Positions 1 through 42,901 of a stretch of 43,261 nucleotides of DNA are shown here, in pieces. The notes beneath the pieces were generated by a model that worked only from the letters and a program-made list of their open reading frames with translations, was not told where the DNA came from and ran no database searches. The position numbers were made by a program, and so were the translations under genes. The stretch is taken from the NCBI GenBank assembly GCA_016840085.1, contig JAEOTA010000079.1, positions 1 through 43,261 of the forward strand, read 5' to 3'. Numbering within the stretch: the stretch's first letter is position 1; each line of letters begins with the position of its first letter. Source of the stretch: Promethearchaeota archaeon. GTDB taxonomy: Archaea; Asgardarchaeota; Lokiarchaeia; Sigyniarchaeales; SOKP01.

Positions 1-162
1 AATTTTGAATATTTCGTGTCTAGTATTGAAAAACCAATGTCAATAGTTTTAACAATGCTGAATCCATCAAAGAAATTAGATGTAGGATTCACCGTTAAGA
101 ATGGACTCGAGTTTTTTTCAAGAAATTTGTTGAAATGGTCAGAAGAAAGAAGAAAAAGTTAG
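1..162 (+). CDS. 3' end of an unidentified protein (partial, runs off window start)
   Basis: Frame 1 is open from base 1 (NFEYFVSSIEKPMSIVLTMLNPSKKLDVGFTVKNGLEFFSRNLLKWSEERRKS) to TAG at 160-162. Confidence 0.6.
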   Translation, partial: NFEYFVSSIEKPMSIVLTMLNPSKKLDVGFTVKNGLEFFSRNLLKWSEERRKS

Positions 163-228: not shown

Positions 229-1368
229 ATGGATGAAATGGGATTAAAACATCTATTTAGCCCAGGAAAAATTGGTAATGTTGAGATTAAAAACAGATTT
301 ATCAGATCCGCAACTTGGGTTGCTAAAGCAACAATAGATGGTTATGTAACAGAGGATTTGATTGAATGTTATAATCAACTTGCTGAAGGAGGAATAGGTT
401 TAATTATTTCTGGATATATTGCTGTAGATCCATCAGGCGCTGCCACACGTCGTATGGCATGTTTATATGATGATTCTTATATTTCTGGTCAAAAGAAATT
501 GGTAAAAACTGTTCATGAACATCCAGATGTGAAAATAGCAGCTCAGATTGCTCATACAGGTAATGGTGTTTTTATTTTTGGAAATCAAGAATTTGAACCT
601 GTCGGACCCTCACCAATGATGAATTTAGTTCTAAATAAACCTTGCCGTGAACTGACAACAGAAGAAGTCAGACGAATCATCAAAAATTTTGTGGATACTG
701 GCTGTAGGGCTTATGATTGTGGTTATGATATGGTACAAATTCATGGTGCTCATGGTTATCTGCTTAGTGATTTCGTTTCACCTTTCACAAATAAGCGTAC
801 TGACGAATATGGAGGAACTATACAAAAACGAACTAAGATATTAATAGATATTTATAATCAACTTAGGGATGAGTTATCAAAGAATTTTCCAATATTCATT
901 AAATTAAATACACAGGATTATCTCCAGGAAGGATTAACATTAGAGGAGGGAAAAGAAGTTGCAAAAATTCTTATAGATATAGGTTATGATGCCATAGAGC
1001 CAAGTTCTGGTCGATATAATTTAAAATTTGGCAGCAAGAAGACTTATCCTAGTGTTATATTAAAATCGAAAGATGATGAGAATTATTTTTTACCAAATGT
1101 TAAAATCTTGAAGCCTATAATGAAAAGTCGACCAATCATTTTTCAGGGTGGTATTAGAAATCCTTTAACAGCCGAAAAATTTATCCAAGAAAACAGCGTT
1201 GATTTTATAGCTATGAGTAGACCTTTAATTTATGAACCAGACCTTCCAAATCGCTAGAATAATGGTGATTTATCAGCTCCACTTTGTACCAGTTGTAATG
1301 CTTGTTTAAGTGTTGCAGCTACTGATTCAGCATATTGTGTTGTTAAAAATAAGCTGGAAGAAAGCTAA
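229..1368 (+). pseudogene. NADH:flavin oxidoreductase (Old Yellow Enzyme family) interrupted by in-frame TAG at 1255-1257
   Basis: LFSPGKIGNVEIKNRFIRSAT, QIAHTG, HGAHGYLLSDF, NKRTDEYGG and SRPLIYEPDLP motifs. The frame continues past TAG as NNGDLSAPLCTSCNACLSVAATDSAYC to TAA at 1366-1368. Confidence 0.85.
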
Positions 1369-1612: not shown

Positions 1613-1958
1613 CGTAAGAAAAAGAAATTAGATTTAGACTCAAAAAAGACTCCTACTTTTAAAACTTTATGACTGAATAATGGTTCAATTTTTTCTCACT
1701 CTTTATAACAAGCTAAAAAGAACTGTATCTTTTTTTATTAAAATTAAACGAATTTTTTAATAATCAATATTATTTAAAATTCTCTCACTGATAAAGAAAA
1801 ATTTTTTGTTTAAATAGTTGAAAATTATTAAAGTTCTAATGAGCTTAATCGAATAATATTAGTAATCATATTTTTTGTGGTAGAATATTTAAATATTTGA
1901 TTATAATTTTATTTTCTTATTTATTTAAATCGATTAATATCTAAGTAAAAGAAAAAAA

Positions 1959-4916
1959 ATGTCAAATCGGAGTCTTACTGGAATAGATAAACGGGAACTC
2001 CAATATTATGAAGGATTAGAAATTGGGGCAGTATCTGTAAAATGGGTTCGAAGAACTATTAATGGTGTGGTAGCAAGTGAGGTTGTACGACACGAAGGTT
2101 CTCCTAGGAAAAAGATAAAAGAAATATTTAAACGTTATAATGTTGATACTAATTCAAAAATCGTAATAACTGGTCAAGCTACAAGTAGTTTTCTCAATTT
2201 ACCATATGTTTCAGAAGTAGAATGCCTAGAAAAGGCTTTATCCTTCTATAATCTTAAACCTGACATTCTACTCTCACTTGGAGGAGAAACTTTTAGCGTT
2301 TATCCAATGAAAAACGGCATAATAAAAAATATTATTTCAACTTCGAAATGTGCTGCTGGTACGGGTGAGTTCATTGTCCAACAACTTCAAAGGATGGGAT
2401 TATCTGTTGAGGAGGGAATTAAAGCCAGTTTATATGGTAGTTTCACCCAATTGGCAACAAGATGTTCCGTTCATTGTAAATCCGATGCTACTCATAAACT
2501 CAATAAGGGTGAATGCAAACCTGAAGATATAGTAAAAACTTTAATCTATGACTTAGCAAGAAAGGTAGGTGAGATGATAGAAGCAGCTCAATGGTCCACA
2601 CGGCTAATTGTAATATCTGGGGGAGTTGCTTTAAATAAAGTCTTCATTGAGAATCTTCGTGGTTTTTTAAAGGATTCAGAAATTATTGTATTGCCAGAAA
2701 GTGCTTTCCTCGAAGTATTTGGAGCATCTTTATACGCATCCGAATTACAAAATTCATTCTTCCTTCGTGATGATTGGTTTAAATCATCGAAAGTTGAGTT
2801 TCAAACTCAAGAACGACTTAAGAAAGCAGAATCTCTTCTGGATTACCGTGTTAACACAGACAGTAATATAAAAATAAGGGTTGGAGAAAAATATATCCTT
2901 GGTATAGATGCAGGTTCTACTACTACTAAAGCTGTATTATTTAACATTTCAAACGATTCAGTAGGGGCAAGTGTTTATTTAAGAACATTGGGAAATCCTA
3001 TAGTAGCGACTAAACATTGTATCAATAAACTTATGGAAAAAGTAGGTAATAACTCTATAAAAATAATTCAATGTGGGGTAACAGGTTCTGCTAGAGAGAT
3101 GGTATCAGTTTATTTAGATAATAGTCGAAGTTTTAATGAGATACTAGCACATGCAAGATCCGCTACTGAAGAACTCCCAGATGTTGATACTGTATTTGAA
3201 ATTGGTGGCCAAGATTCAAAATTTATTTCATTTTTAAATGGTGTGCCGGTTGATTATGCGATGAATGAAGGATGCTCTGCAGGGACTGGCAGCTTTCTTG
3301 AGGAATCCGCATCAGTTGATATGGGCATAGCTGTAGAGGATATAAGTGACATAGCGACAAAAAGCACTCACCCAATAGCATTTGGTGAACGATGTGCCGC
3401 CTTTATTAATACTGATTTAAGGAATGCCCTTCAACAGGGAGCTAATCTAGAAGATGTTGTTGCTGGTTTAGTTTATTCAATTGCTGATAATTATATTTCA
3501 CGTATTGTTGGTTCCCGTCAAATAGGGAAAAATCTTCTTTTTCTTGGAGGAGTTGCTCTTAATAGATCTGTTGCTTTAGCTATTGCTACTCGTTCACAGC
3601 GAAAAGTAGTTGTTCCTGCACATCCTGAACTTATGGGGGCTGTGGGTACAGCTCTTATGACAAGGGATCTTCTACAAAATAATGTTATATCTGAAGAAAA
3701 TTATAAACTCAAGAATCTTACAAAAGGGGAAATACAAATCAAAAATACTTTTAGATGTAAAGTATGTGAAAACAATTGTGAAATTCAGAGAATTTCGATA
3801 AGAGGAAAAGTTTATCCATTTGGAGGTTTATGTTCTAAATATAAATTATTACGACAAAAAGGTGCAAAAGTTAAGGAAGGTCAAGATCTTATCGAATTAA
3901 GGAATAAAATGATAATTGAAGAATTCGGAGCCAAATCTTTAAAGAATCCTCGTGGCACGATAGGTATACCTATGGCTTTAACTTCTCATAGACTTTTCCC
4001 TCTATATGCAAAATTCATTAATGAGCTTGGTTATAATGTAATGTTATCAAATCCTTCAAAAACAGGTAACACTAAGACAAAAGCACCTATTTGTTATCCC
4101 TGTGAATTAGTTCATGGAGCAGTAAATGATCTTATTAATCGTAATGTTGATTATATTTTCTTACCTCATGTAATTGAAATGGAAATACCAAAAGGTTTTA
4201 TTCATGGATATACATGCCCTTCTACAACAACTATTCCAGATATCATTCGCGCAGCTTTTGAGAATGCAAGTGAAAAGATATTAGCACCTCATATTGGTAT
4301 CTCAGAAGATCTTATAGAAACAACGTTGAAGGAGTTTGGAAAAGTTGCTCGTTTATTAGGATTAGATTATAAAATGGGCATTAATGCAGGTTTTATAGCT
4401 TTATCTCACTACAAAATGTTCAGAGAAATATATAACGAATTTGGTAGAGGAAAATTGAGGGATTTATTAAAAAAACCCTCTGTAATTATTGCTGGAAGAC
4501 CTTATGTTGTTTATCCACCAGATGTGAATATAGCACTCCCTCGTAAGATCGTTAGCAGAGGATATAATGCTATTCCCTCTGATCTCTTACCTCTTTTAAA
4601 AGATGAAGCACCTCATTCAAGGAATGTATGGAGTTTTACTCAAGAGATCAATAATGCTGTCGAATATGTAAAAAAATACCCCAACTTATACATCTGTTTT
4701 GTTTCTTGCTTCTCTTGCGGTCCTGATGGTACAATGTATCATCATTATAGACAACAACTTGAAGGACACACGTTCTGTTACCTTGAAATAGATTCTCATA
4801 CGGCCCATGCTGGTTTTGAAACAAGAGTAGAAGCCTTTCTTGATATTATTGAAGAACGTCATCGAAAGAAAAATAAGGATATTAAGAATTTATTAAATCA
4901 AAGTATAACTGTCTAA
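1959..4916 (+). CDS. PlsA/Ger-like acyl-CoA dehydratase activase: two BadF/BadG/BcrA/BcrD ATPase domains plus DUF2229-type domain
   Basis: Domain 1: GLEIGAVSVK, KCAAGTGEF, RCSVHC, SGGVALN. Domain 2: GIDAGSTTTK, EIGGQDSK, MNEGCSAGTGSF, RCAAF. Linker CKVCENNC. C-terminal IGIPMAL, CYPC, YTCP, FSCGPD, LEIDSHTAHAGFETRVEAF. Confidence 0.9.
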   Translation: MSNRSLTGIDKRELQYYEGLEIGAVSVKWVRRTINGVVASEVVRHEGSPRKKIKEIFKRYNVDTNSKIVITGQATSSFLNLPYVSEVECLEKALSFYNLKPDILLSLGGETFSVYPMKNGIIKNIISTSKCAAGTGEFIVQQLQRMGLSVEEGIKASLYGSFTQLATRCSVHCKSDATHKLNKGECKPEDIVKTLIYDLARKVGEMIEAAQWSTRLIVISGGVALNKVFIENLRGFLKDSEIIVLPESAFLEVFGASLYASELQNSFFLRDDWFKSSKVEFQTQERLKKAESLLDYRVNTDSNIKIRVGEKYILGIDAGSTTTKAVLFNISNDSVGASVYLRTLGNPIVATKHCINKLMEKVGNNSIKIIQCGVTGSAREMVSVYLDNSRSFNEILAHARSATEELPDVDTVFEIGGQDSKFISFLNGVPVDYAMNEGCSAGTGSFLEESASVDMGIAVEDISDIATKSTHPIAFGERCAAFINTDLRNALQQGANLEDVVAGLVYSIADNYISRIVGSRQIGKNLLFLGGVALNRSVALAIATRSQRKVVVPAHPELMGAVGTALMTRDLLQNNVISEENYKLKNLTKGEIQIKNTFRCKVCENNCEIQRISIRGKVYPFGGLCSKYKLLRQKGAKVKEGQDLIELRNKMIIEEFGAKSLKNPRGTIGIPMALTSHRLFPLYAKFINELGYNVMLSNPSKTGNTKTKAPICYPCELVHGAVNDLINRNVDYIFLPHVIEMEIPKGFIHGYTCPSTTTIPDIIRAAFENASEKILAPHIGISEDLIETTLKEFGKVARLLGLDYKMGINAGFIALSHYKMFREIYNEFGRGKLRDLLKKPSVIIAGRPYVVYPPDVNIALPRKIVSRGYNAIPSDLLPLLKDEAPHSRNVWSFTQEINNAVEYVKKYPNLYICFVSCFSCGPDGTMYHHYRQQLEGHTFCYLEIDSHTAHAGFETRVEAFLDIIEERHRKKNKDIKNLLNQSITV

Positions 4917-4919
4917 AAA

Positions 4920-6326
4920 ATGACCGAAATAGAACAATTTAAAGATTTAAAAGCAGATGACCCAAATAAAGTCAAACAAACTCGATTTTCAAAAGATCAT
5001 AAATACATCATTGACAGTGATGGTCAGAAAGTTGAATTTGATGATCCTAGGATTGTGTATATCAACCCAGAACCTCGTAATCCATATGGAAGACGACTAG
5101 TTATAAATTTATTCAAAAAATATAACCGCAACATTAGGATCAGCAAAGAAACTGATGCATCTATTTTACAATATGCCAAAAAGATTTGCTCTGGAAGGGA
5201 ATGTCTTGCGAGTATTGCTATAGCAGGGGCAGTCTTAAAGGATATAAATGAATATAGGGATGAAAATGAAATCAGTATTTATCGAACTCCAATAGATCAA
5301 CATGGTCCATGCCAAAATGGAGCATGGCCAGTTCTTTGGGAGACATTTGCAAAGAGGTTAAATTTGAAAAATGTAATTTTTTGTGCTTTTCCTAAGTATA
5401 CTAACAATTATTTAGGGTTGAATCGCGATTTATTAGCATGGGAAAACATTAATTTTATCGTAGGACAATATATTATTGAAGCACGGAACGCTTTGCAATG
5501 TGTTGCTGAAAACAAAATTATAGCTTTGGAGAAATTTGAAGATTTAACAAGTGAATTTATCAATAATATAAAAGAAGGAAAGAAAACACTGAATACAGGT
5601 TTAATAAAATGGGCAAAAGAAGTTGCGAAAATACCTCTTAAAGCAAAAGTTGATGAAACCCCAAAAGTATTAATTTTTGGAGGTTTAAACTTAATGTTTG
5701 ATCATTATCCAATAGAGGAATTTTTTCTTGAAAGAGGAATTATTACCAAAGTTGTTGATATAGTTGAATCGATGAGTCTAATTTTAGCCGAAAGTACTAT
5801 AAGATATGGATTTAAAAAAGGAATATTAACTCCAAAAGAACAATTTAGTGAGCAATTACTGGATTCTACTGATTTGGATGAAAATGATAGAAAAGAAGCT
5901 CTAAGAGCAAAAAGAAATAAAAGTGCTTTAAAATTCTTAAATTCGCAATGTAAAACTTTTAGAAAAATTATGGGAAAATCAGGATTATTGTTTGACTCAT
6001 TTATAGATTTTATTGATCTCTTTGAAGAAGGAAATAAATATGTGTCTTCAAATAGCCTTAGTGAAACTCCAATAATAACTGGTAGATTTTTACATTCAAT
6101 TGAGGAAGGCATCTACGATGGTTTGATCAATTTAGGGACTTTTAATTGTCAACCGGCAATGAACTCACAGGCTATTATACGCCCTCTAGCTAATAAGTGT
6201 GATATTCCATACGCAGCAATAGACTGTGAAGGTCCGTGGATTTCTACGAATCAACTCAGGCTTCTTGAAACCATTGCCATTCAAGCTAAGAGAGAAAGAA
6301 AAATAAAGAACGAATTATTAGCTTAA
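4920..6326 (+). CDS. PlsR-like reductase/dehydratase partner subunit (2-hydroxyacyl-CoA dehydratase-related)
   Basis: Starts 3 nt after the upstream stop; Cys motifs GRECL, GPCQNG and FNCQP match the C-terminal module of this family. Confidence 0.75.
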   Translation: MTEIEQFKDLKADDPNKVKQTRFSKDHKYIIDSDGQKVEFDDPRIVYINPEPRNPYGRRLVINLFKKYNRNIRISKETDASILQYAKKICSGRECLASIAIAGAVLKDINEYRDENEISIYRTPIDQHGPCQNGAWPVLWETFAKRLNLKNVIFCAFPKYTNNYLGLNRDLLAWENINFIVGQYIIEARNALQCVAENKIIALEKFEDLTSEFINNIKEGKKTLNTGLIKWAKEVAKIPLKAKVDETPKVLIFGGLNLMFDHYPIEEFFLERGIITKVVDIVESMSLILAESTIRYGFKKGILTPKEQFSEQLLDSTDLDENDRKEALRAKRNKSALKFLNSQCKTFRKIMGKSGLLFDSFIDFIDLFEEGNKYVSSNSLSETPIITGRFLHSIEEGIYDGLINLGTFNCQPAMNSQAIIRPLANKCDIPYAAIDCEGPWISTNQLRLLETIAIQAKRERKIKNELLA

Positions 6327-11005: not shown

Positions 11006-12876
11006 TTAAAATCTATATTTTCCATTATTAATCCCATCAAAGATTTCTTTAGTTAATTCAGCATATTCAGAAGTACCCGGTAAAAGTACAAATAAGGGGT
11101 CTTCGATTTTATTAGGATCAAAGCCTTCTTTTTTCATATCAATTTTTTGGATTTTAAGAGTCGCTGTTGTTTCAATTTCCTTTCGAAAGCGTATAAACTT
11201 AGGGACCGCATATTCTGGTAAATATTCCTGTAAATAACTTAAAAAACTCGAAAGTTCAAATTTCTTAATATCAGAGTCTCCAATAACGATTGAAGCCATT
11301 CCAGCACGCCCTTCTGTATTTGGAATCAATACTTCATATACGGCACAAATTTCTACTTGTTCAAAATTGTTGATAACAGTTTCAACTTCTTCTGTAGATA
11401 CATTTTCTCCTTTCCACCTGAAAGTATCACCAAGTCTATCCACAAATTGAGCATGACTATGGCCAATATCGCGTAAAAGATCTCCTGTGTTAAGATACAT
11501 ATCTCCCTCTTCAAAAACATTGCGAAAGATTTTCTTTTCATCTGCTCTTTTGTCTTTATACATATAAAAAGTATCAGGTTCAACTTGACCCAATAATAAA
11601 CCTGCTTCTCCAGGTTCAGCTCTAATTAAAAATCCATTCTCATCATGTATGGGTTCATCAGTATCGATATCATATTTAACAATAGCATAAAGACCAATAC
11701 AAAAGCCAACAGTACAATCTCTATTAAATATATTAGCAAAATTTGGATTAAATCTTTCTGTAGCACCATAAAACTCACAAATTCTACGGATTCCGAAACG
11801 TTTTTTAAAATCTTTCCATATATCAGGACGAAGTCCGTTTCCTACACACTTTTTCACTGGATTCTTTTTATCATCTTTCTTTGGGGGCTGGTTAAATAAA
11901 TACCTACATATCTCTCCAATATAATTAAAACAAGTAGCTTTGAATTTTCTTGTATCTTTCCAGAAATTACTAGCGCTAAATTTTCTCCTAATAGCTTTAG
12001 TGGAGCCATATCTTAAGGCTGCAGCATATGCTACATTAATTGCGTTTGAATGAAAGAGTGGTGTTGTAATATACATTACATCTTTTTTTTTCATACCAAA
12101 AACAATATCACCCCAATAATAACCAGCACCAACTGTATGTCCATTGGTTATTATCGCGGCTTTAGGTAAACCTGTTGTACCACTAGTAAATATATAAGCA
12201 TAAGGATCTCTTGCCTCTATTTCTACTGAAGTTGGGGGATTTTTAATATCCTCATTTTTAACTTCTTCAAAGAGGTTAATGAATCCTTTTGGCATATTTT
12301 TTTCACATTTTTAGGTAGAAAGTAGAGATTACGGGCTTGATCTTCTGTTATTTCAAGTTTAGATTTAACCTCTTCAAAAGCATCAATAAGTTCTTCACCT
12401 ATTATAAAAACCTTCCCAGGAGCATGTTTTATACTATGAGTAAATGGGTCCTGTCTTTGATTTGTATTTATCAATGAAGATATCACACCAATTTTAGCCA
12501 TTGCGACAATTATAAATAATATCTCAGGACGGTTTTCCAAGTAAACAATAGCAACATCTCCTTTCTTTAAACCAACTTTATTAAGGAAATAATTAGCATA
12601 CCGATTAATCCATTCATTATATTCTTTATAGGTATACTTAATATCTTCATACAATATCGCAATATGCTTAGGTTGCTTTTCCGCAAATTTTTCTGTCCAC
12701 ACTCCAATAGAATCTTTATCTTCAGGTTTTCTATCTAAATTTATTTCTACAGCTTTACGAATTTTTCTTCGTCGTGGAAGAACATATAACCGTCCCATTA
12801 GATAATCTTTTTTTGTTATGAGATATGAATTTTTTTTATTTAGAGTTTTTGGCAAGATAATCTCTCTTTTTCTCAA
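11006..12876 (-). pseudogene. Long-chain acyl-CoA synthetase (FATP/FadD6-like), frameshifted near 12297-12307
   Basis: The N-terminal ORF 12223-12876 (YTYKEYNEWINRYA, GDVAIVYLENRPE) overlaps the C-terminal ORF 11006-12295 (YIFTSGTTGLPKAA, YIGEICRY, GNGLR, FYGATE, DRLGDTFRWKGENVST). One added base joins them. Confidence 0.85.
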
Positions 12877-15815: not shown

Positions 15816-16260
15816 TAGCTTCCTCTTATTTAATATAAAAAGTTAAAATTAATCTTATTTAATCATCTAATAGTAATATAGATTAATATTTTTATTTAAA
15901 GATGTAAAAAATATTTTAAAATAAAGAATCATCATCTTTTATTTAACTCTTACAAATATCTTTTGATATCAAGCTATTGGATTATGATTTGTTAAAACTG
16001 AACTATACATATATAAATTACTTAGATTTAATATTTTTGTTCGATATTACCCAAAAATCTCAGAATTATTAAAAAAAATCGTATTTTTTAATAGCTTATA
16101 ATATCTTTGATAATGTTATTTAATCAAAAAATTATTTAAGTAAAATTCTATAATATAACTCAACATTTAACAATAATTTAAATCATTACATTAAAAATTT
16201 TAATAAAAAACATTAAAGCTAAAAGTTAACAAATATAACATAGAGGAAATCACCCAAAAA

Positions 16261-17451
16261 ATGATAATCTCGTTCCCAAATATGGGACCCAATTGGGTTG
16301 CGTTTAAAACATTGTTTGAAACCTTAGATCCATCGATTAAAGTAGTAGTGCCCGATCCTACCAATCGTGAGGCAATCAAAATCGGCGTAAAATATAGTCC
16401 GGAATTTGTGTGTTTTCCATTTAAAGCCACTTTGGGAGATTTTGTAAATGCAATTAAAAAGGGTGCTGATACTTTAGTGATGGCTATAGATTGCGGACCA
16501 TGTCGTTTCGGATTTTATCACGCAGTTCAAGAAAGGCTCCTTCATGATATGGGATATAAAAATGTGAGAGTAATCCCTTTAGACCAGGCAGATCTCTTGG
16601 AATTTCACTGGGTCAAAACTCTCCAAGAAGTTAGTGATATAAGCGGTCTTTTTGCATATCCTCGGTATTTAAAAGCAGTGATCTTTTTCTTGAAAAAAGC
16701 TAAGTTCTTACATGATATTCAGACTGCTGAAGGGTTATTCCGCGCATATGAACGAAATCAAGGAGATACTACCCGTGTATTAAATAACTTATTAAATAAA
16801 CTTGATCAAACTAATACTCTTACAGAATTACGTAATTTTAAGAATGTCATTAAAGAAGACTTTAATTCAATTGATGTTGACAAAACAAGAACTCCTCTAC
16901 GGGTTGCAATATTTGGTGAAATTCATATTAGTTTAGAGCCATATGTTAATGTGGATATTCGTAGAAAACTTGGAGAATTAGGAGTTGAAGTTCACCAAAA
17001 TTTAAGCCTTAAAGATTGGGTTTATCATAAATTTCACCTTAATTTTCACCGTAAGTGGCTTGAACATTTAGCACATCCGTATATGCCAATGGATATTGGA
17101 GGAGAATGCTTATGGGTAATTGGTGAATATATAGATAGAGCCCAAAGTGGTTTTAGTGGGGCGACCCATATATACCCCTTCACGTGCATGCCCGAAGTGA
17201 CTGCCAGGACAATTATAACTAATAAATTAAAGAAAATGTACGATCTCCCCATAATATTTTTCTCTTTTGATGAGCAAACTGGAATAGAAGGAATGCGTAC
17301 GCGCCTCGAAGCATTTGTTGATCTAATGAATTCAAGACGCAACCATAAATTAAAGACTGAAAAATTTTCCCTTGAAAAAGAAAAGAAGAGTTTTTATGAA
17401 TCAAATGGATCCCATTTTTTTCATGAATGTGTTGAATTATTGCTAACATAA
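16261..17451 (+). CDS. PlsR-like / 'CoA protein activase' reductase-dehydratase subunit
   Basis: ISFPNMG, SPEFVCFPFK, GPCRFGFY, GEI, PFTCMPE and FDEQTG...TRLEAFVD motifs. Confidence 0.85.
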   Translation: MIISFPNMGPNWVAFKTLFETLDPSIKVVVPDPTNREAIKIGVKYSPEFVCFPFKATLGDFVNAIKKGADTLVMAIDCGPCRFGFYHAVQERLLHDMGYKNVRVIPLDQADLLEFHWVKTLQEVSDISGLFAYPRYLKAVIFFLKKAKFLHDIQTAEGLFRAYERNQGDTTRVLNNLLNKLDQTNTLTELRNFKNVIKEDFNSIDVDKTRTPLRVAIFGEIHISLEPYVNVDIRRKLGELGVEVHQNLSLKDWVYHKFHLNFHRKWLEHLAHPYMPMDIGGECLWVIGEYIDRAQSGFSGATHIYPFTCMPEVTARTIITNKLKKMYDLPIIFFSFDEQTGIEGMRTRLEAFVDLMNSRRNHKLKTEKFSLEKEKKSFYESNGSHFFHECVELLLT

Positions 17452-17466
17452 TAAAATTGTGATTAA

Positions 17467-18504
17467 ATGGTACAGGTACAAGTGTCAGAAGCTGACAAGG
17501 TTATAAGTGACGATGGAAAGCAGGATGCTTTTCTTGGAATTGATATTGGGAGTGTAACCTGTAAATTTGTGTTGATGGATAGAGATGGGAATGTTCTGAG
17601 TTCTGTTTTCTTACGTAATCGGGGCTCTCCGATAGAATCGGCTAAAGCTGGGATGGCAGAATTAAGGGAAAATATTGAGCAGAGTGATGAATTACAAGAA
17701 TATGCAATACGCAGTTGTGGAACGACAGGTTCGGCAAGATATTTAACGAAAGCGGTAGTTGGAGGAGATCTTGCTAAAACAGAGATTATTGCCCATGCTG
17801 TAGCTACACAATCTATAATTCCAGATGTAAGAACTATTTTAGAAATCGGGGGACAGGACTCAAAAATAATAATTCTTCGAGATGGTATTATTATAGATTT
17901 TGCGATGAATTCTGTATGTGCTGCGGGAACAGGTTCTTTCCTTGATCATCAAGCTGCGAGACTTGGAATCCCAATCGAAGATTTTGGTGATTATGCGATA
18001 AAGTCCAAAAATCCGGTAAGTATTGCAGGAAGATGTACTGTATTTGCCGAATCTGATATGATCCATAAGCAGAATGCGGGTTATTCAAGAGAAGATATCA
18101 TTGCTGGGCTCTGTGATTCGTTGGTAAGAAATTATATGAATAATTTATCTAAAGGGAAGGAATTAGAGGAACCTATTGCATTTCAAGGAGGAGTCTCTTA
18201 TAATAAAGGAATTATTCAAGCATTTGAAAGGCATTTAGGTTGTAAGATTATTGTTCCTAAATATAATGTATTAATGGGGGCTTTGGGAATGGCTATCCTC
18301 GTAAGAGATTATTATATAGAACATCCAACAGAAACACTCTTCCGAGGTCTCCAGGTTGCTGAAATTGAATTTACAACAAGTGCATTCAATTGTGGTGATT
18401 GTCCAAACAATTGTGAGATTGTACAGGTCAAAATGCCTGAATTTGGGAATAAAATAATAGCACGCTGGGGCAGTAGATGCGGAAAATGGGACCAGCTAAC
18501 TTAG
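17467..18504 (+). CDS. Single-domain acyl-CoA dehydratase activase (BadF/BadG/BcrA/BcrD ATPase, [4Fe-4S])
   Basis: GIDIGSVTCK, TTGSAR, EIGGQDSK, MNSVCAAGTGSFLD, RCTVFAESD, QGGV and C-terminal CGDCPNNC...RC. Confidence 0.9.
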   Translation: MVQVQVSEADKVISDDGKQDAFLGIDIGSVTCKFVLMDRDGNVLSSVFLRNRGSPIESAKAGMAELRENIEQSDELQEYAIRSCGTTGSARYLTKAVVGGDLAKTEIIAHAVATQSIIPDVRTILEIGGQDSKIIILRDGIIIDFAMNSVCAAGTGSFLDHQAARLGIPIEDFGDYAIKSKNPVSIAGRCTVFAESDMIHKQNAGYSREDIIAGLCDSLVRNYMNNLSKGKELEEPIAFQGGVSYNKGIIQAFERHLGCKIIVPKYNVLMGALGMAILVRDYYIEHPTETLFRGLQVAEIEFTTSAFNCGDCPNNCEIVQVKMPEFGNKIIARWGSRCGKWDQLT

Positions 18505-18521: not shown

Positions 18522-18716
18522 ATGGCAGAATTTTTAAAACAAATAAAAGAGTTGGGTGAAGAGGTTTTTGAGACTCTACAACATAAGACGAAGTTATCGA
18601 CAATTTTTGACCTTTTTTTAGAAAAGGTTATTCCTACATTTGTATCCGAAAAGGATTTAAAAGAGTATTATGAAAAAAGAACGGAAGAAGTTGATGATTT
18701 TATAGATAAATTATAA
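18522..18716 (+). CDS. Small acidic helical hypothetical protein
   Basis: 64-aa ORF filling the gap in an apparent operon (17 and 18 nt spacers). Confidence 0.65.
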   Translation: MAEFLKQIKELGEEVFETLQHKTKLSTIFDLFLEKVIPTFVSEKDLKEYYEKRTEEVDDFIDKL

Positions 18717-18734: not shown

Positions 18735-19433
18735 ATGAGTGAAAGTACAAGTCCGGAAAGTTCAGAAGATTCTGATAAGGTAAATATGAAGGTTGTTGCG
18801 TTTGATATGCTTTATGCCGCAGTAAAAGGCTTAAGTGGGTTATTTTTTAAAACCTTCATGGGTTTGAAAATCGAGGGAGAAACAAATATCCCGTTGAGAG
18901 GAAAAGCTATCTTAACTACAGTTACTCCAAATATCATCCGTGATATGCTTATTATTAGTCAAGTAACAGGTCGTAAAATTCATTTTATGCTTGATCCTAA
19001 ATTAATGAAGCATCAAATTGCGGGACCAGTTTTAAAGTCACTTGGAATGATTCGTGGAACGGAGAGTAAAGAAGACACAGAACCTATTGATAAAATTTTT
19101 GAAATATTAAATGAGAAGGGAGATCTTGTTGGTATGACTCCTGAAGCACGCCATGATCGTGAAGTGCAGGTGAAATCGATGGCAGCAATAATAAAGTTTG
19201 CGATTGTTGGAGAAGCTCCAATTATTCCGATAGCCATCTATACTGAGAAAATAAAGATTTTAAACATGTTTAATGGAGATGGCATTAAAGTAAAGGTTGG
19301 TACACCATTAAATGTCGAAAAGCGATTGAATCGAGAGAAATATCGAGCTGAACGCTATGAACTGGCTGAAGATATAATAAATATTATTGACTCTCTTAAA
19401 GAAACACCTGAAATCGAAGAAAGTGAACTATAA
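18735..19433 (+). CDS. PlsC-like lysophospholipid acyltransferase-fold protein with degenerate catalytic motif
   Basis: KIEGETNIP..GKAIL, RKIHFM, PEA (for PEG), APIIPIAI and VKVGTPL blocks; the HX4D position reads TVTPNIIRD; GAGGT SD. Confidence 0.75.
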   Translation: MSESTSPESSEDSDKVNMKVVAFDMLYAAVKGLSGLFFKTFMGLKIEGETNIPLRGKAILTTVTPNIIRDMLIISQVTGRKIHFMLDPKLMKHQIAGPVLKSLGMIRGTESKEDTEPIDKIFEILNEKGDLVGMTPEARHDREVQVKSMAAIIKFAIVGEAPIIPIAIYTEKIKILNMFNGDGIKVKVGTPLNVEKRLNREKYRAERYELAEDIINIIDSLKETPEIEESEL

Positions 19434-35228: not shown

Positions 35229-36647
35229 ATGGAAGGTATTGAAATTATGGTGGAAAAAAGTGATGTTCTTATTGTAGGTGCTGGAACTGCTGGTACATAT
35301 ATTAGTTGGTTATTAGCTAAAAAAGGATTTTCAGTTATCCTAATTGAAAAAGATAAACGAGAAGAAGTTGGAAAGCGATTAGATGTAATTCATTTTGAGA
35401 CCGATAGAGTTCAAATGGCAGGAATACCTCCATTTAAGGCTGGAACTCCCGATTGTATTGAAATTAGAAACGTTTCAACAGTTATTACTCCAGACTTTAA
35501 AACAGAAATAAAAGTCAGAGCGCTTCAGACAATTGTACGGTTAACACCTTTTTTGAACAAAACGTATAAAATATTGGAATCCGATGGTATTAAGTTAGTA
35601 TTTTCAACTGAATTTAAAGAAATTATTTTTGAAGATAATAAAATTGTCGGCTTATTCGCTGAATCGGGTGGAAATAGACAAGAGTATCGTGCTCGTTTAA
35701 TTATCGATGCTTCGGGAAAACCAGCTGTTATAAGGACATCATTACCAGAAGATTATGGTATAGAAACTTTCGAATTAGGTCCTAATGATGTAATGTATGT
35801 CCTTTTAGAATATATAAAATGGAAATATCCAGATAAACCTCACCCTGCTACAGACACCGGATATAATTGGTGGTTATTATGGTTTGGACCATCTTATGAT
35901 CCAGAAGGTGCAATATTAGGAGTAGGCCAACCAGGGTCGTTTGAAAATGCTAGGAACGCTCGTGAAGATTTTCTTAAGAGAGCAAATCTCCCACCTTATG
36001 AGATAATAAAAAAAGAACAAGGCAGTACACCATATAGAAGACCCCCTTATTCATTAGTTATGGATGGATTTTTATGCATTGGAGACGCTGCAGCTGTAAC
36101 ATATCCTTTCTCTGGTCATGGTGTTACAGCAACCTGGGTCCTATGTATGATAGCATCAGATGTAATAGAAAAAGCTCTAAAAACCAAAGAATATATTAGC
36201 AGAGAGCATCTTTGGGAAATAAATGTGAATTATTTTAGAGATCAAGGTGCAAAATTCGCTGGACTTTTTACACAATTATCAGGGGTACTAAACTTTAATG
36301 AAAAAGAGTGGAATTACTTTCTGAAAAAAGGATTGATTTACAAAACTAGTGAAGGAGATGATATTCCTGAGCCAAATAAAGAGTATGAAGAAGAAATGAG
36401 TCTAAGTGAAATTTTAAAATTTCTATTCAAAATAATAGGAGGTCTAGTTCGAAGAAAATTATCTCTTAAACATATGAAGAGATTATTACAAGCAAATGCA
36501 CTAGCTGGAAAAATTAAAAAACACTATGAAATTTACCCTGAAAATCCTAAAAACTTCGGTAAATGGGTAGAAAAAGCTGAATTATTATGGACACAAAAAA
36601 AAATAGCTGTTAAAAAACTTAGTTTAGTGAAAATTGAGTATCATTAA
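35229..36647 (+). CDS. FAD-dependent oxidoreductase, geranylgeranyl reductase-like family
   Basis: DVLIVGAGTAG, IDASG and IGDAAAVTYPFSGHGV motifs. Confidence 0.8.
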   Translation: MEGIEIMVEKSDVLIVGAGTAGTYISWLLAKKGFSVILIEKDKREEVGKRLDVIHFETDRVQMAGIPPFKAGTPDCIEIRNVSTVITPDFKTEIKVRALQTIVRLTPFLNKTYKILESDGIKLVFSTEFKEIIFEDNKIVGLFAESGGNRQEYRARLIIDASGKPAVIRTSLPEDYGIETFELGPNDVMYVLLEYIKWKYPDKPHPATDTGYNWWLLWFGPSYDPEGAILGVGQPGSFENARNAREDFLKRANLPPYEIIKKEQGSTPYRRPPYSLVMDGFLCIGDAAAVTYPFSGHGVTATWVLCMIASDVIEKALKTKEYISREHLWEINVNYFRDQGAKFAGLFTQLSGVLNFNEKEWNYFLKKGLIYKTSEGDDIPEPNKEYEEEMSLSEILKFLFKIIGGLVRRKLSLKHMKRLLQANALAGKIKKHYEIYPENPKNFGKWVEKAELLWTQKKIAVKKLSLVKIEYH

Positions 36648-39131: not shown

Positions 39132-39254
39132 ATAAGTCGCAATATTATTGTAAAAGTTGGAGGATATAGTGCTTATTTCGTTGATCTGGATAAAGAAATA
39201 CCAGATGAGATCATTTCAAGAACAGAACATATGAAGGTTTTAAAATCTAAATGA
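39132..39254 (+). pseudogene. C-terminal remnant of a second glycyl radical enzyme
   Basis: ISRNIIVKVGGYSAYFVDLDKEIPDEIISRTEHMKVLKSK closely matches the C-terminus of 40319-42901; its stop overlaps the activase start (ATGA). Confidence 0.85.
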
Positions 39255-40159
39255 AAGGAATTGTTTTTGATATTCAAAATTATGCGATATATGATGGACC
39301 AGGAATTCGAACATTAATATTTTTGAAAGGATGTCCATTAAAATGTTTATGGTGTCAAAATCCAGAATCTCAAAAGTTAAATCCTCAAATTTCATATTTT
39401 AAAGAAAAGTGTTTATTATGTGAAACATGTATAAAAACGTGTCCAAATAATGCTCTTAGCTTAAATGTGAATGAAATAACTCGAGATGAAAATCTTTGTG
39501 TGCTTTGTGGAAATTGTGTTGAAGCATGTCCAAATAAAGTTTTGGAAATAATAGGAAAGGAATACTCAATAGAAGAACTAGTTGAAATTGCTCTAAGAGA
39601 TAAACCTTTTTATGACAATTCTGATGGAGGTGTAACTATTTCTGGTGGTGAACCGACAATGCAATTTAAGTTTCTTATGGAATTGCTTAAAACACTTAAA
39701 AATAAAGGAATTCATGTCGCAATAGAAACATGTGGTTATTTTAATGAGGATTTAATAGAAGATTTAACTGATAATGTCGATTTATTTTTATTTGATATTA
39801 AACTCACTGACAATGAGAAACATAAGACCTTCACTGGTGTTAATAATGATACAATTTTAACAAATTTCTCAAAAGTTCTTTCTAAAGTGGGTAATGAAAG
39901 AATTATTCCTCGCATACCATTAATTCCAGCAGCAAATACAGATGAAAAAACCATTATGAATATCATATCTTTTTTACAACAAATAAATTACCTAGGTCCA
40001 ATACATTTAATGCCATACAATAAATTAGCAAAAACAAAATATGAAAAAGTAGGTATGGGGGATTTATATAAAGATATGGGAGATTTAACTGAAGATGATA
40101 TTAAAGAAATCACTAATATTTTTGAAAGACATTCATTTCAAGTTATAATTAATCATTAA
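39251..40159 (+). CDS. Glycyl-radical enzyme activating protein (radical SAM with ferredoxin-like insert)
   Basis: DGPGIRT..FLKGCPLKCLWCQNPE, two CX2CX2CX3C motifs, GGVTISGGEP and IETCG. Confidence 0.95.
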   Translation: MKGIVFDIQNYAIYDGPGIRTLIFLKGCPLKCLWCQNPESQKLNPQISYFKEKCLLCETCIKTCPNNALSLNVNEITRDENLCVLCGNCVEACPNKVLEIIGKEYSIEELVEIALRDKPFYDNSDGGVTISGGEPTMQFKFLMELLKTLKNKGIHVAIETCGYFNEDLIEDLTDNVDLFLFDIKLTDNEKHKTFTGVNNDTILTNFSKVLSKVGNERIIPRIPLIPAANTDEKTIMNIISFLQQINYLGPIHLMPYNKLAKTKYEKVGMGDLYKDMGDLTEDDIKEITNIFERHSFQVIINH

Positions 40160-40318
40160 ATCAATCAAGCTATTATTTACTCATAATCCAGAATGAGAAG
40201 AAATAAATATTTCAACTTTATAATATTTAATTAATTTTGAGTTATTATCCAATATACATATTTATTTTGTAAGATTTTAGTTATTTAATATTCAAAAATA
40301 GGTTTTAATGATAATATT

Positions 40319-42901
40319 ATGGAAATGATTGATAACGCTAGTGAGAGGATAAAAAGAATACGTAGAAGACTTCTTGATGAAATCCCTTTAATTTCTATAG
40401 AAAGAGCAAAGTACTACACAGAAAAATGGAAGGAAACTGAAAAGGAAAATTTAAATTTAAATGTAAGAGTTGCCCTTTCAATGAAACATATTCTTGAAAA
40501 TATAACCATTTATATTGATCCAGATGATCGAATTGCGGGTAAATGGACTCAAAATTTCATAGGAATACCAATAGATATCGAACGTGGATTGTGGAATAGA
40601 GTTTTTGAAATTGAACTTGATGAGAAAACAATGAAAAGATATGTAAAAGACAGTAATAAGAACTATATGTCTTATATGGTAAATAAAATTGGAGCTGATG
40701 GACTTCTTAAAATGTTAGAACACAGCAAAAAAATTAGAGCTTTAATCACAACTCTCGGAACGGATACTCTAGAAGAAAGAAAGATAAACCCATATAAAAT
40801 TAAAGAGGAAGACAAAAAGGTTCTCCTAACAGAACTCCTTCCTTATTGGAAAAATAAAACACTTGCAGACTTATTAGAAAGAGAGTATGCTAATTCTGAT
40901 GTATATACAGGGGAAGCTTATGATTTTCTATCTCATCTTCCGTTAAAAACAGCACAAAACGACATTGTAATATCTCCTTGTGCCGTAATTGGGGTTTGGC
41001 AAGGTCATTTAGTCCTTGATTTTAAAACAGTTTTAGAAAAAGGACTTTTAGCTATGCGAAAAGAAGTTCAGGATGAGATTAAAAATAATAAGGAATTAAC
41101 TGATGTTCAGAAAGGATTTTTACAATCACTTGATATTACCTATGAGGCTATAATAATATTTACCCATAGATTAGCAGAACGAATAAAAGACAAATTAAAT
41201 AAAACTGAAGATATTGAAAGAAGAAATGAATTATCAGAGATGTATGAAGCATGTAAAAGAATTCCAATGTATCCCCCTACTACATTTCGTGAAGCAGTCC
41301 AATCTTTTTGGATTATTAAAACAATGGTTGACTTGGCTATACCCTTTAATGTACATGGACCAGGTCGTTTAGATCAACTTTTTTATCCTTATTATCTTTC
41401 AGACATCATAAAAGGTCATATAACCCGAGAAGAAGCTCGTGAATTACTAGAAGAATTAGTTTTAAATATAATGAGTCATAATATACGTCCTTATTCTAAT
41501 GCTGTGAGTGATTTCAGTCAAAGATTTGAAGGTTCAGAGCCTGTTACTGTGGGAGGTTTGAATGAAGCGGGAGAAGATGCAACTAATGAGCTTACTTATC
41601 TTATATTAGAGGCAGCGGATAGATCAAAAGCATCTCTCAATTTTGCTGTTCGCTTCCATGATAAAACTCCTGAAGAACTTTATATGAAAGTAACAGAAAT
41701 TCAATATAATGGATATTCAAGCATATCAGTATTAAATGATAATGTATGTATTGAAGCACTAAAGAATCGAGGAATCTCAGAACAGGATGCAAATGCATAT
41801 TCAATAACAGGTTGTGTAGATATGTGCAGTCCAGGTAAAACAGGAGGAATTAGTTTTTCAGCTTTTTTATTATGTAGAACACTTGATATGACTTTAAGAA
41901 ATGGAAATTGTTTAACAATAGGTGGTTTAGTAAAAAACGTGGGGTTGAAAACAGGAGATCCGGATAATTTTATAACGTTTAATGAATTCTTGGATGCATT
42001 CTATCGTCAATCAGATTTTGTTCTTAAACAAATTGTCAAGGCAACAATAATAAGAGATCGATTATTTGCGAAATATTTTCCAGCACCTTTCATTTCAGCA
42101 TTCATGCAAGGTTGTTTTAAGAGGAAAAAAGATGTAACTCAAGGAGGTGCCTTTTATGATGCAGAAGGCATTCTTCTAATGAATAGTATTGCCAACACAG
42201 TCGATTCACTATATACCATTAAGAGACTTATCTTTGACCAGAAAAAATTTACCTTTAAAGAACTATTAGAAGCAATAGATCATAATTTTATGAATAGTTA
42301 TGGACATATTCATAAGCTAATCATGGATTTAGAAGGGAAATGGGGTAATGGCAATCCCGAATGTGATGAACTTGCTCGAGAAGTTTTTAACCATATATTT
42401 GAAGAAACATATAAATACAAAACTTATAAAGGTGGAGTCTATGCTCCTTTCATTATTTCTATGACTTCACACACTTACGATGGGAGAATAGGTATGGCTA
42501 CACCTGATGGGAGACTTGCGGGGAAGCCATTTGCAGCAAGCTGTAATCCTTACAATGTGGAAAAACACGGACCTACAGGAGTTATGCGATCAGTAGCAGC
42601 ACTCGATTTTCAACATGTATGTGGATGTGCTGTTAATATACGAATGCATCCCTCAGGGATAGGAAAGACAGAAGAAGCTAGGAAAAAATGGATAGCTCTT
42701 CTAAAAACCTATTTTACTTTAGGAGGACAACAACTTCAACCAACAGTTGTATCAACAGAGGTATTAAAAGCAGCTCAACAAAACCCAGAACCTTATAGGA
42801 ATATAATAGTTAAAGTTGGAGGATATTCAGCATACTTTACTGATCTCGGAAAAGAGATTCAAGATGAAGTCATTTCAAGAACTGAACATAGAATGGTCTA
42901 A
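40319..42901 (+). CDS. Glycyl radical enzyme (PFL2/eliminase-like, not canonical PFL)
   Basis: GRLDQ, TVGG...DATNELT, Cys loop TGCVD, ATPDGR, GPT and Gly loop KVGGYSAYF; 860 aa. Confidence 0.93.
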   Translation: MEMIDNASERIKRIRRRLLDEIPLISIERAKYYTEKWKETEKENLNLNVRVALSMKHILENITIYIDPDDRIAGKWTQNFIGIPIDIERGLWNRVFEIELDEKTMKRYVKDSNKNYMSYMVNKIGADGLLKMLEHSKKIRALITTLGTDTLEERKINPYKIKEEDKKVLLTELLPYWKNKTLADLLEREYANSDVYTGEAYDFLSHLPLKTAQNDIVISPCAVIGVWQGHLVLDFKTVLEKGLLAMRKEVQDEIKNNKELTDVQKGFLQSLDITYEAIIIFTHRLAERIKDKLNKTEDIERRNELSEMYEACKRIPMYPPTTFREAVQSFWIIKTMVDLAIPFNVHGPGRLDQLFYPYYLSDIIKGHITREEARELLEELVLNIMSHNIRPYSNAVSDFSQRFEGSEPVTVGGLNEAGEDATNELTYLILEAADRSKASLNFAVRFHDKTPEELYMKVTEIQYNGYSSISVLNDNVCIEALKNRGISEQDANAYSITGCVDMCSPGKTGGISFSAFLLCRTLDMTLRNGNCLTIGGLVKNVGLKTGDPDNFITFNEFLDAFYRQSDFVLKQIVKATIIRDRLFAKYFPAPFISAFMQGCFKRKKDVTQGGAFYDAEGILLMNSIANTVDSLYTIKRLIFDQKKFTFKELLEAIDHNFMNSYGHIHKLIMDLEGKWGNGNPECDELAREVFNHIFEETYKYKTYKGGVYAPFIISMTSHTYDGRIGMATPDGRLAGKPFAASCNPYNVEKHGPTGVMRSVAALDFQHVCGCAVNIRMHPSGIGKTEEARKKWIALLKTYFTLGGQQLQPTVVSTEVLKAAQQNPEPYRNIIVKVGGYSAYFTDLGKEIQDEVISRTEHRMV

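Follow-up and report, generated by a model that had tools for sequence, protein, structure and literature searches.

A split Ger-like gene pair in Lokiarchaeia, a candidate ester-to-ether lipid reductase linked to a fatty-acyl transferase cluster

Contig JAEOTA010000079.1 of a Promethearchaeota archaeon (assembly GCA_016840085.1) was analyzed over its whole length of 43,261 nt, which we call the window. Near its start lie two genes, separated by 3 nt, for a protein of 985 residues (A) and one of 468 residues (R). A first-pass annotation had described two BadF-type activase domains and a DUF2229 domain in the first protein and a cysteine-motif partner in the second, and we confirmed both the open reading frames and the domains. 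Pfam assigns to A two BcrAD_BadFG stretches (PF01869, E 6e-53) and, at residues 667-876, a DUF2229 domain (PF09989, E 9e-38); TIGR00241 of NCBIfam matches it twice. Two PF01869 domains followed by PF09989 (BBD) define the PlsA/PlsR/Ger family (PMC13159169), and the adjacent R is the second reductase half, equivalent to PlsR. Searches of Pfam, NCBIfam and PDB sequences with R gave no matches. R corresponds to the C-terminal third of fused bacterial proteins of 1,420-1,525 residues (42-49% identity), and its AlphaFold model (predicted local distance difference test score, 89.8) has as its top fold matches DCCP and subunits of class I benzoyl-CoA reductase and 2-hydroxyacyl-CoA dehydratase, with E-values of 1e-5 to 3e-3 and template modeling scores of only 0.33-0.40. 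We suggest, with moderate confidence, that A and R would form one oxygen-sensitive, ATP-driven Fe-S reductase that turns an acyl-glycerolipid ester into an ether. This proposal is based on the domain order, the conserved ligands, the fold, the phylogenetic side, the gene context and a shared upstream motif.

Both genes are under purifying selection (nonsynonymous divergence of 0.07-0.10, synonymous divergence of 0.48-0.84). All 14 cysteines of the family, located in the activase domains, the linker and both reductase halves, are kept in A and R, each being conserved in 52-56 of 56 aligned rows, and they presumably bind Fe-S clusters. The first activase domain of A is without the usual aspartate, as is that of every Ger-side group tabulated. 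Joined, A and R can be aligned over their full length with SHJ90043.1, the validated Ger of Desulfatibacillum alkenivorans, at 31% identity over 1,495 columns (A, 36%; R, 23%), and R alone aligns to Ger residues 1003-1388 (E 2e-24, 23% identity). The identities of this protein and of the Desulfatibacillum Ger2 (SHK01260.1) were verified by exact look-up. In BLAST comparisons with Ger2 and with a Listeria PlsA-type protein (WP_014600632.1, a stand-in for C. perfringens CPE1195/1194), only A aligned (27%), with no match for R; over the alignment the pair is 20-23% identical to the PlsA-type rows (about 21% to Listeria). C173 and the motifs CAAF and DSHTA are present in the pair and in Ger, not in the PlsA-type rows. 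Hence, the earlier description of a PlsA/PlsR-like operon holds at the level of the family, and the closest tested enzyme is Ger rather than PlsA.

Table 1. Features of the two-gene unit and of the neighboring core genes in the window
Feature	Position	Strand	Details
Subunit A gene	1959..4916	+	985 aa; ORF confirmed
Subunit A, activase 1			C131, C169; first Asp position is Glu21
Subunit A, activase 2			Asp317, C439, C479
Subunit A, linker Cys motif			C600, C603, C607, C625
Subunit A, DUF2229/reductase half 1			C712, C753, C920
Subunit R gene	4920..6326	+	468 aa; reductase half 2, HGD-D/BCR-type fold; conserved C95, C131, C410
Bipartite motif TATTTAAA-N8-TATYTAAGTAAA upstream of A	1922..1949	+	Conserved; candidate promoter/operator of the A and R unit
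Second motif copy, before core split system	16117..16144	+	
3' end of second PlsR-like gene	1..126	+	Residues 392-433 of a 441-aa homologue
PlsR-like subunit of family-wide split system	16261..17451	+	396 aa; DUF2229 partner (355 aa) on contig C24
Single-domain activase with linker Cys motif, core split system	17467..18504	+	345 aa
Acidic ORF within core operon	18522..18716	+	64 aa
PlsC-fold protein without catalytic His motif	18735..19433	+	232 aa

A tree of 56 rows (IQ-TREE, LG+G4, midpoint root), whose inference is limited by the omission of T. maritima Ger and C. perfringens PlsA/PlsR, joins A and R with Ger at 100/100 support, apart from the PlsA-type and Ger2 rows; the split three-gene system was omitted because of its long branch. 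The branching with CoA-dehydratase systems that the first-pass annotation had named as counter-evidence was not observed. The pair also stands in a clade separate from plasmalogen-type PlsA, here represented by the Listeria stand-in only; the genes of plasmalogen producers are 48-55% identical to C. perfringens PlsA and 41-42% to PlsR. Within the Ger side, A and R fall in a paralogue clade that is sister to D. alkenivorans Ger. Since Desulfosudis oleivorans has one protein orthologous to Ger (61% identical to it) and another that belongs to the A and R clade, that clade is a paralogue of Ger. Among the enzymes that could be placed in the tree, the tested one nearest to this subfamily is Ger.

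In the tree, the split genes of Lokiarchaeia fall inside a set of sequences from anaerobic bacteria, Desulfobacterota and Myxococcota included, which are mainly Desulfobacterota paralogues at 46-62% identity; a transfer into Lokiarchaeia would be expected to leave this pattern. With the nearest outgroup as the query, the homologues recovered were unnamed proteins, proteins of Acidobacteriota and proteins of deltaproteobacterial or myxobacterial origin; the sample from the phylum of G002 proved to be Acidobacteriota, and L119-L134 were treated accordingly. The metagenome-assembled genome (MAG) that holds the bacterial homologue nearest the Lokiarchaeial clade (L040/G002) was labeled 'Eubacteriales' by its depositor, yet the sampled members of its GTDB phylum are Acidobacteriota. 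Fused Asgard proteins (P. syntrophicum QEE14272.1, Ca. Harpocratesius, Ca. Heimdallarchaeum) form a sister group to the A and R clade, and a single clade of fused and split Asgard forms was rejected (approximately unbiased test, p 1e-23). At least two independent lineages of the Ger side occur in Asgard archaea, and A and R are accessory genes acquired from bacteria and do not represent an ancestral trait of Asgard archaea. A survey of 301 Asgard genomes detected the split form in 22 of the 33 genomes of the host genus and in 3 of 58 others in the family. By contrast, the tandem PlsC (81/91) and the 396-residue PlsR-like gene (74/100) occur throughout the family. Other Asgard families have fused forms (23/27 and 9/9 in two of them, for example), and one family of 71 genomes yielded none. 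In one genome of the host genus (G474; L165:5971-7220) the pair has been deleted, leaving R residues 404-467 (the last 64 codons) directly behind the 355-residue DUF2229 gene.

The resident cluster consists, in order, of an HAD phosphatase, a tandem PlsC, the 355-residue DUF2229 protein, the 396-residue PlsR-like protein, the single activase, the 64-residue ORF and the PlsC-fold protein, and A and R lie between the 355- and 396-residue genes. They are an accessory insert in a family-wide cluster of tandem PlsC and split PlsA-like genes, of which P. syntrophicum, a carrier of the fused form that lacks the A and R pair, has a compact version. The order PlsC, DUF2229, A, R recurs among relatives; R and the tandem PlsC share a contig in 11 of 22 genomes, co-oriented and within 16 kb in all 11. 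Unrelated genes, such as a peptidase and a metallophosphoesterase, lie in the interval after the 355-residue gene as well. In the host genome (G000), the tandem PlsC (553 residues, two domains; C24:1293-2954 (-), L135) has both its HX4D and its PEG motif intact. The end of contig C24 carries this gene, the 355-residue DUF2229 gene and the first part of a FAD-DUF2229 fusion, and the window opens with the end of the last gene of that operon; the two contigs are very probably neighbors, an adjacency that rests on the split gene ends, as there is no direct overlap.

After the fusion itself (FAD_binding_4-DUF2229; L027:14114-16627, start at G000 C24:121-2 (-)) come an activase and a PlsR-like gene. 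Within the family, 29 of 91 genomes have the fusion (88-97% identity), and the other Asgard families searched are without it; the Atlas cluster nearest its FAD domain is 'Delta(24)-sterol reductase'. An assignment of this domain to alkyl-DHAP synthase was dropped (weak match, E 5e-4). One speculative possibility is that the fusion reduces C=C bonds in conjunction with a PlsA-like system; the fusion is arguably more unusual than A and R themselves.

The best homology-independent evidence that ties A and R to glycerolipid acylation is the bipartite motif, which precedes A in most relatives. A position weight matrix (PWM) built only from the relatives' DNA upstream of A was scored on 2,499 upstream regions of the host genome; it ranked A 1st, the operon of the 396-residue core reductase 4th and the tandem PlsC 6th, with the caveat that the relatives' promoters of the 396-residue gene had already been seen before the matrix was built. 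None of 300 column-shuffled matrices reproduced the ranking of the operon and PlsC. In most relatives, the matrix scores high upstream of PlsC, and the scores for the peptidase and hydrolase neighbors are close to zero or negative. Taken by itself, the 14-bp palindrome is similar to a TATA box and lacks specificity, which only the longer bipartite matrix has. A sigma-70 scan is uninformative for an archaeal host. A and R are apparently co-regulated with the fatty-acyl transferase cluster.

In the chemistry of benzoyl-CoA reductases and 2-hydroxyacyl-CoA dehydratases, two activase domains bridge one [4Fe-4S] cluster and ATP hydrolysis drives low-potential electrons onward. In A, C131, C169, C439 and C479 would bridge such a cluster, from which electrons would pass to the three-cysteine clusters in both reductase halves. 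The path proposed for PlsAR comprises two one-electron reductions, protonation and dehydration (PMC8788747). The substrate would be a glycerolipid acylated by the neighboring tandem PlsC with acyl-CoA from scavenged fatty acids or, alternatively, a scavenged bacterial lipid. Ger and PlsA activity cannot be assigned from sequence, for which no diagnostic motif is known (PMC13274423). As the product, a saturated alkyl ether like that of Ger is possible, at less than even chances; a vinyl ether is quite improbable, and the alkyl ether is the more likely of the two. We presume that the genes came from anaerobic bacteria and entered the acyltransferase-reductase cluster already resident in one genus of Lokiarchaeia, where they would supplement, not replace, the resident split system. 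A broader and more doubtful idea is that the family might run a co-regulated module of tandem PlsC and up to three PlsA/Ger-type reductases (A and R included, and one fused to the Delta24-sterol-reductase-like flavin domain), which would make fatty-acyl glycerolipids and convert them to non-isoprenoid ethers, yielding a real mixed archaeal membrane.

Several observations weigh against an ester-to-ether function. The pair is only 31% identical to Ger, sits on a long branch and is a paralogue, not an orthologue; Ger2 of Desulfatibacillum and the homologues from Thermodesulfobacterium and Kuenenia gave no ethers in E. coli. Around the bacterial members of the clade there is no conserved lipid neighborhood, and two of them are flanked by CoA-transferase and acyl-CoA dehydrogenases. 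Other matches of the motif precede non-lipid genes, and the copy upstream of A could be a promoter copied on insertion. The supply of substrate is also uncertain: the host MAG, which is 98.8% complete, yielded no GpsA, PlsX, FakB/DegV, FabF or clear CdsA, and the host's PlsY-family protein has an altered motif 2, GGQGNAT. For cultured P. syntrophicum, isoprenoid lipids only are reported, and fatty acids are not discussed.

The gaps in the phospholipid route agree with published surveys of Lokiarchaeota (PMC6737245). Scavenged fatty acids, used via acyl-CoA, would have to supply the acyl chains. The host genome does have the tandem PlsC, the PlsY-family protein (L155:3045-4247 (-), G000 C20; 400 residues, about twice the usual length), FGGY kinases, GDPD, one CarS and a GGGP synthase, and the set of genes found for a route to a diacyl glycerophospholipid is incomplete. 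Acyltransferases vary among the relatives: Ca. Heimdallarchaeum (G322, G365) has the fused Ger-side gene with three PlsY-family genes and no PlsC match, and P. syntrophicum (G587) has two PlsC genes and no PlsY match. Two genomes of the host genus (G522:C224 and G607:C9) encode a protein of about 3,500 residues that contains a pair of ketoacyl-synthase domains and may be an iterative synthase of fatty acids or polyketides.

An explanation that we consider unlikely is that A and R are a catabolic radical reductase or dehydratase for a soluble CoA thioester (2-hydroxyacyl-, enoyl- or aroyl-CoA), whose place in a lipid cluster would reflect nothing more than a tendency of paralogous DUF2229 genes to draw insertions. 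The parent superfamily does act on CoA thioesters, but A and R group with Ger, and the canonical subunits match R at the level of fold only: R has no PF06050 match, and A scores far below the BcrA, BcrD and BzdQ cut-offs. The host also has a separate operon of HgdC and HGD-type genes, on contig C82. Bacterial neighbors that include CoA-transferase III, acyl-CoA dehydrogenases, an HGD-D pair and a glycyl radical enzyme would suit a catabolic role, yet these neighborhoods are not conserved and hence support no single pathway. The catabolic reading is favored by the unrelated genes found in the interval after the 355-residue gene and by the patchy occurrence of the pair, deleted in G474; it is opposed by the motif common to A and R and the PlsC operon. 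Neither protein has a transmembrane segment, which would fit a soluble substrate, though Ger is likewise without any, and comparing the hydropathy of candidate membrane-facing segments gave nothing decisive.

A role in lipid metabolism whose product is not bulk ether phospholipid of the bacterial type seems improbable to us; it could be the reduction of the acyl chain in a chimeric isoprenoid/acyl lipid, the conversion of an acyl donor to aldehyde or alcohol, or the breakdown of scavenged bacterial ester or ether lipids. Its appeal lies in the positional and regulatory link to acyltransferases whose canonical phospholipid route is incomplete, in a host with one CarS and a GGGP synthase but lacking detectable CdsA, PlsX and GpsA, and in the chimeric lipids proposed earlier for Lokiarchaeota (PMC6737245); the Heimdallarchaeum fused proteins, accompanied by PlsY and not PlsC, point the same way. 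However, the activities that we found reported for the PlsA/PlsR/Ger family are ester-to-ether conversions only, and Ger accepts ordinary host phospholipids. A contaminating or bacterial contig is ruled out by archaeal homologues, matching composition and Lokiarchaeia synteny.

Accordingly, the Asgard origin that the first-pass annotation considered probable stands, and the host is a Lokiarchaeia archaeon. The closest homologues of A and R are from Promethearchaeota (Lokiarchaeia, 64-92%), the tetranucleotide profile of the contig correlates with that of its genome at r 0.995, and the gene order of the window is common to dozens of Lokiarchaeia loci; the MAG (4.68 Mb) has 7.6% contamination. 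Elsewhere in the window, an old yellow enzyme gene (229-1257 (+)) has a TAG at 342 residues, after which the frame runs on into CxxCxxC (homologues have 376-380 residues), reflecting either a nonsense mutation or an assembly error. A long-chain acyl-CoA synthetase gene (FadD6-like, 11006-12876 (-)) appears to be split over two overlapping frames by a probable frameshift. The window further contains a geranylgeranyl-reductase-family gene (35229-36647 (+)) and, at 39251-42901 (+), genes for a glycyl radical enzyme and its activase, which score below every equivalog cut-off.

Possible fatty-acid-based lipids in Asgard archaea bear on how eukaryotes came by their membrane, a question that a 2026 review leaves open (PMC12993045). 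The bearing on the archaeal/bacterial lipid divide that had been attributed to A and R was already published, together with Ger homologues in Lokiarchaeota including P. syntrophicum, by Sahonero-Canavesi et al. in 2022 (PMC13159169), and A and R are an accessory import. New here are the placement of the pair beside Ger, its independent origin in bacteria and its link to the PlsC cluster. Our analysis adds which Lokiarchaeial copy is nearest a validated Ger and defines a small set of genes to express. The pair was imported recently into one genus and is dispensable there, so that it reveals little about the ancestor of eukaryotes, for which the family-wide split system and the fused form of Heimdallarchaeia are more relevant.

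Compared with known systems, A and R most resemble D. alkenivorans Ger, with which they share the domain order over the full length, the 14 cysteines, C173, CAAF and DSHTA, and the side of the tree. They differ from it in being split into two genes in an archaeal host and in the first activase Asp position, which is Glu in A and Cys in Ger; Ger orthologues are 58-64% identical to Ger, whereas the pair, at 31%, represents a paralogous sister subfamily. With PlsA/PlsR they have in common the succession activase-activase-DUF2229, a separate second reductase subunit and the cysteine set, but they lie in a separate clade and are without the PlsA-side residues. The fused Asgard homologues of P. syntrophicum, Ca. 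Harpocratesius and Ca. Heimdallarchaeum are likewise of the Ger side and of Asgard hosts (33% identity), yet they are single genes of about 1,400 residues in a clade of their own, with no PlsC found in the flanks examined. HadBC/HadI, HgdAB/HgdC, class I benzoyl-CoA reductase and DCCP have homologous activase domains (E 1e-33) and the fold of R; they differ in having separate small subunits and no DUF2229/linker cysteine module, and are about 10-13% identical to R.

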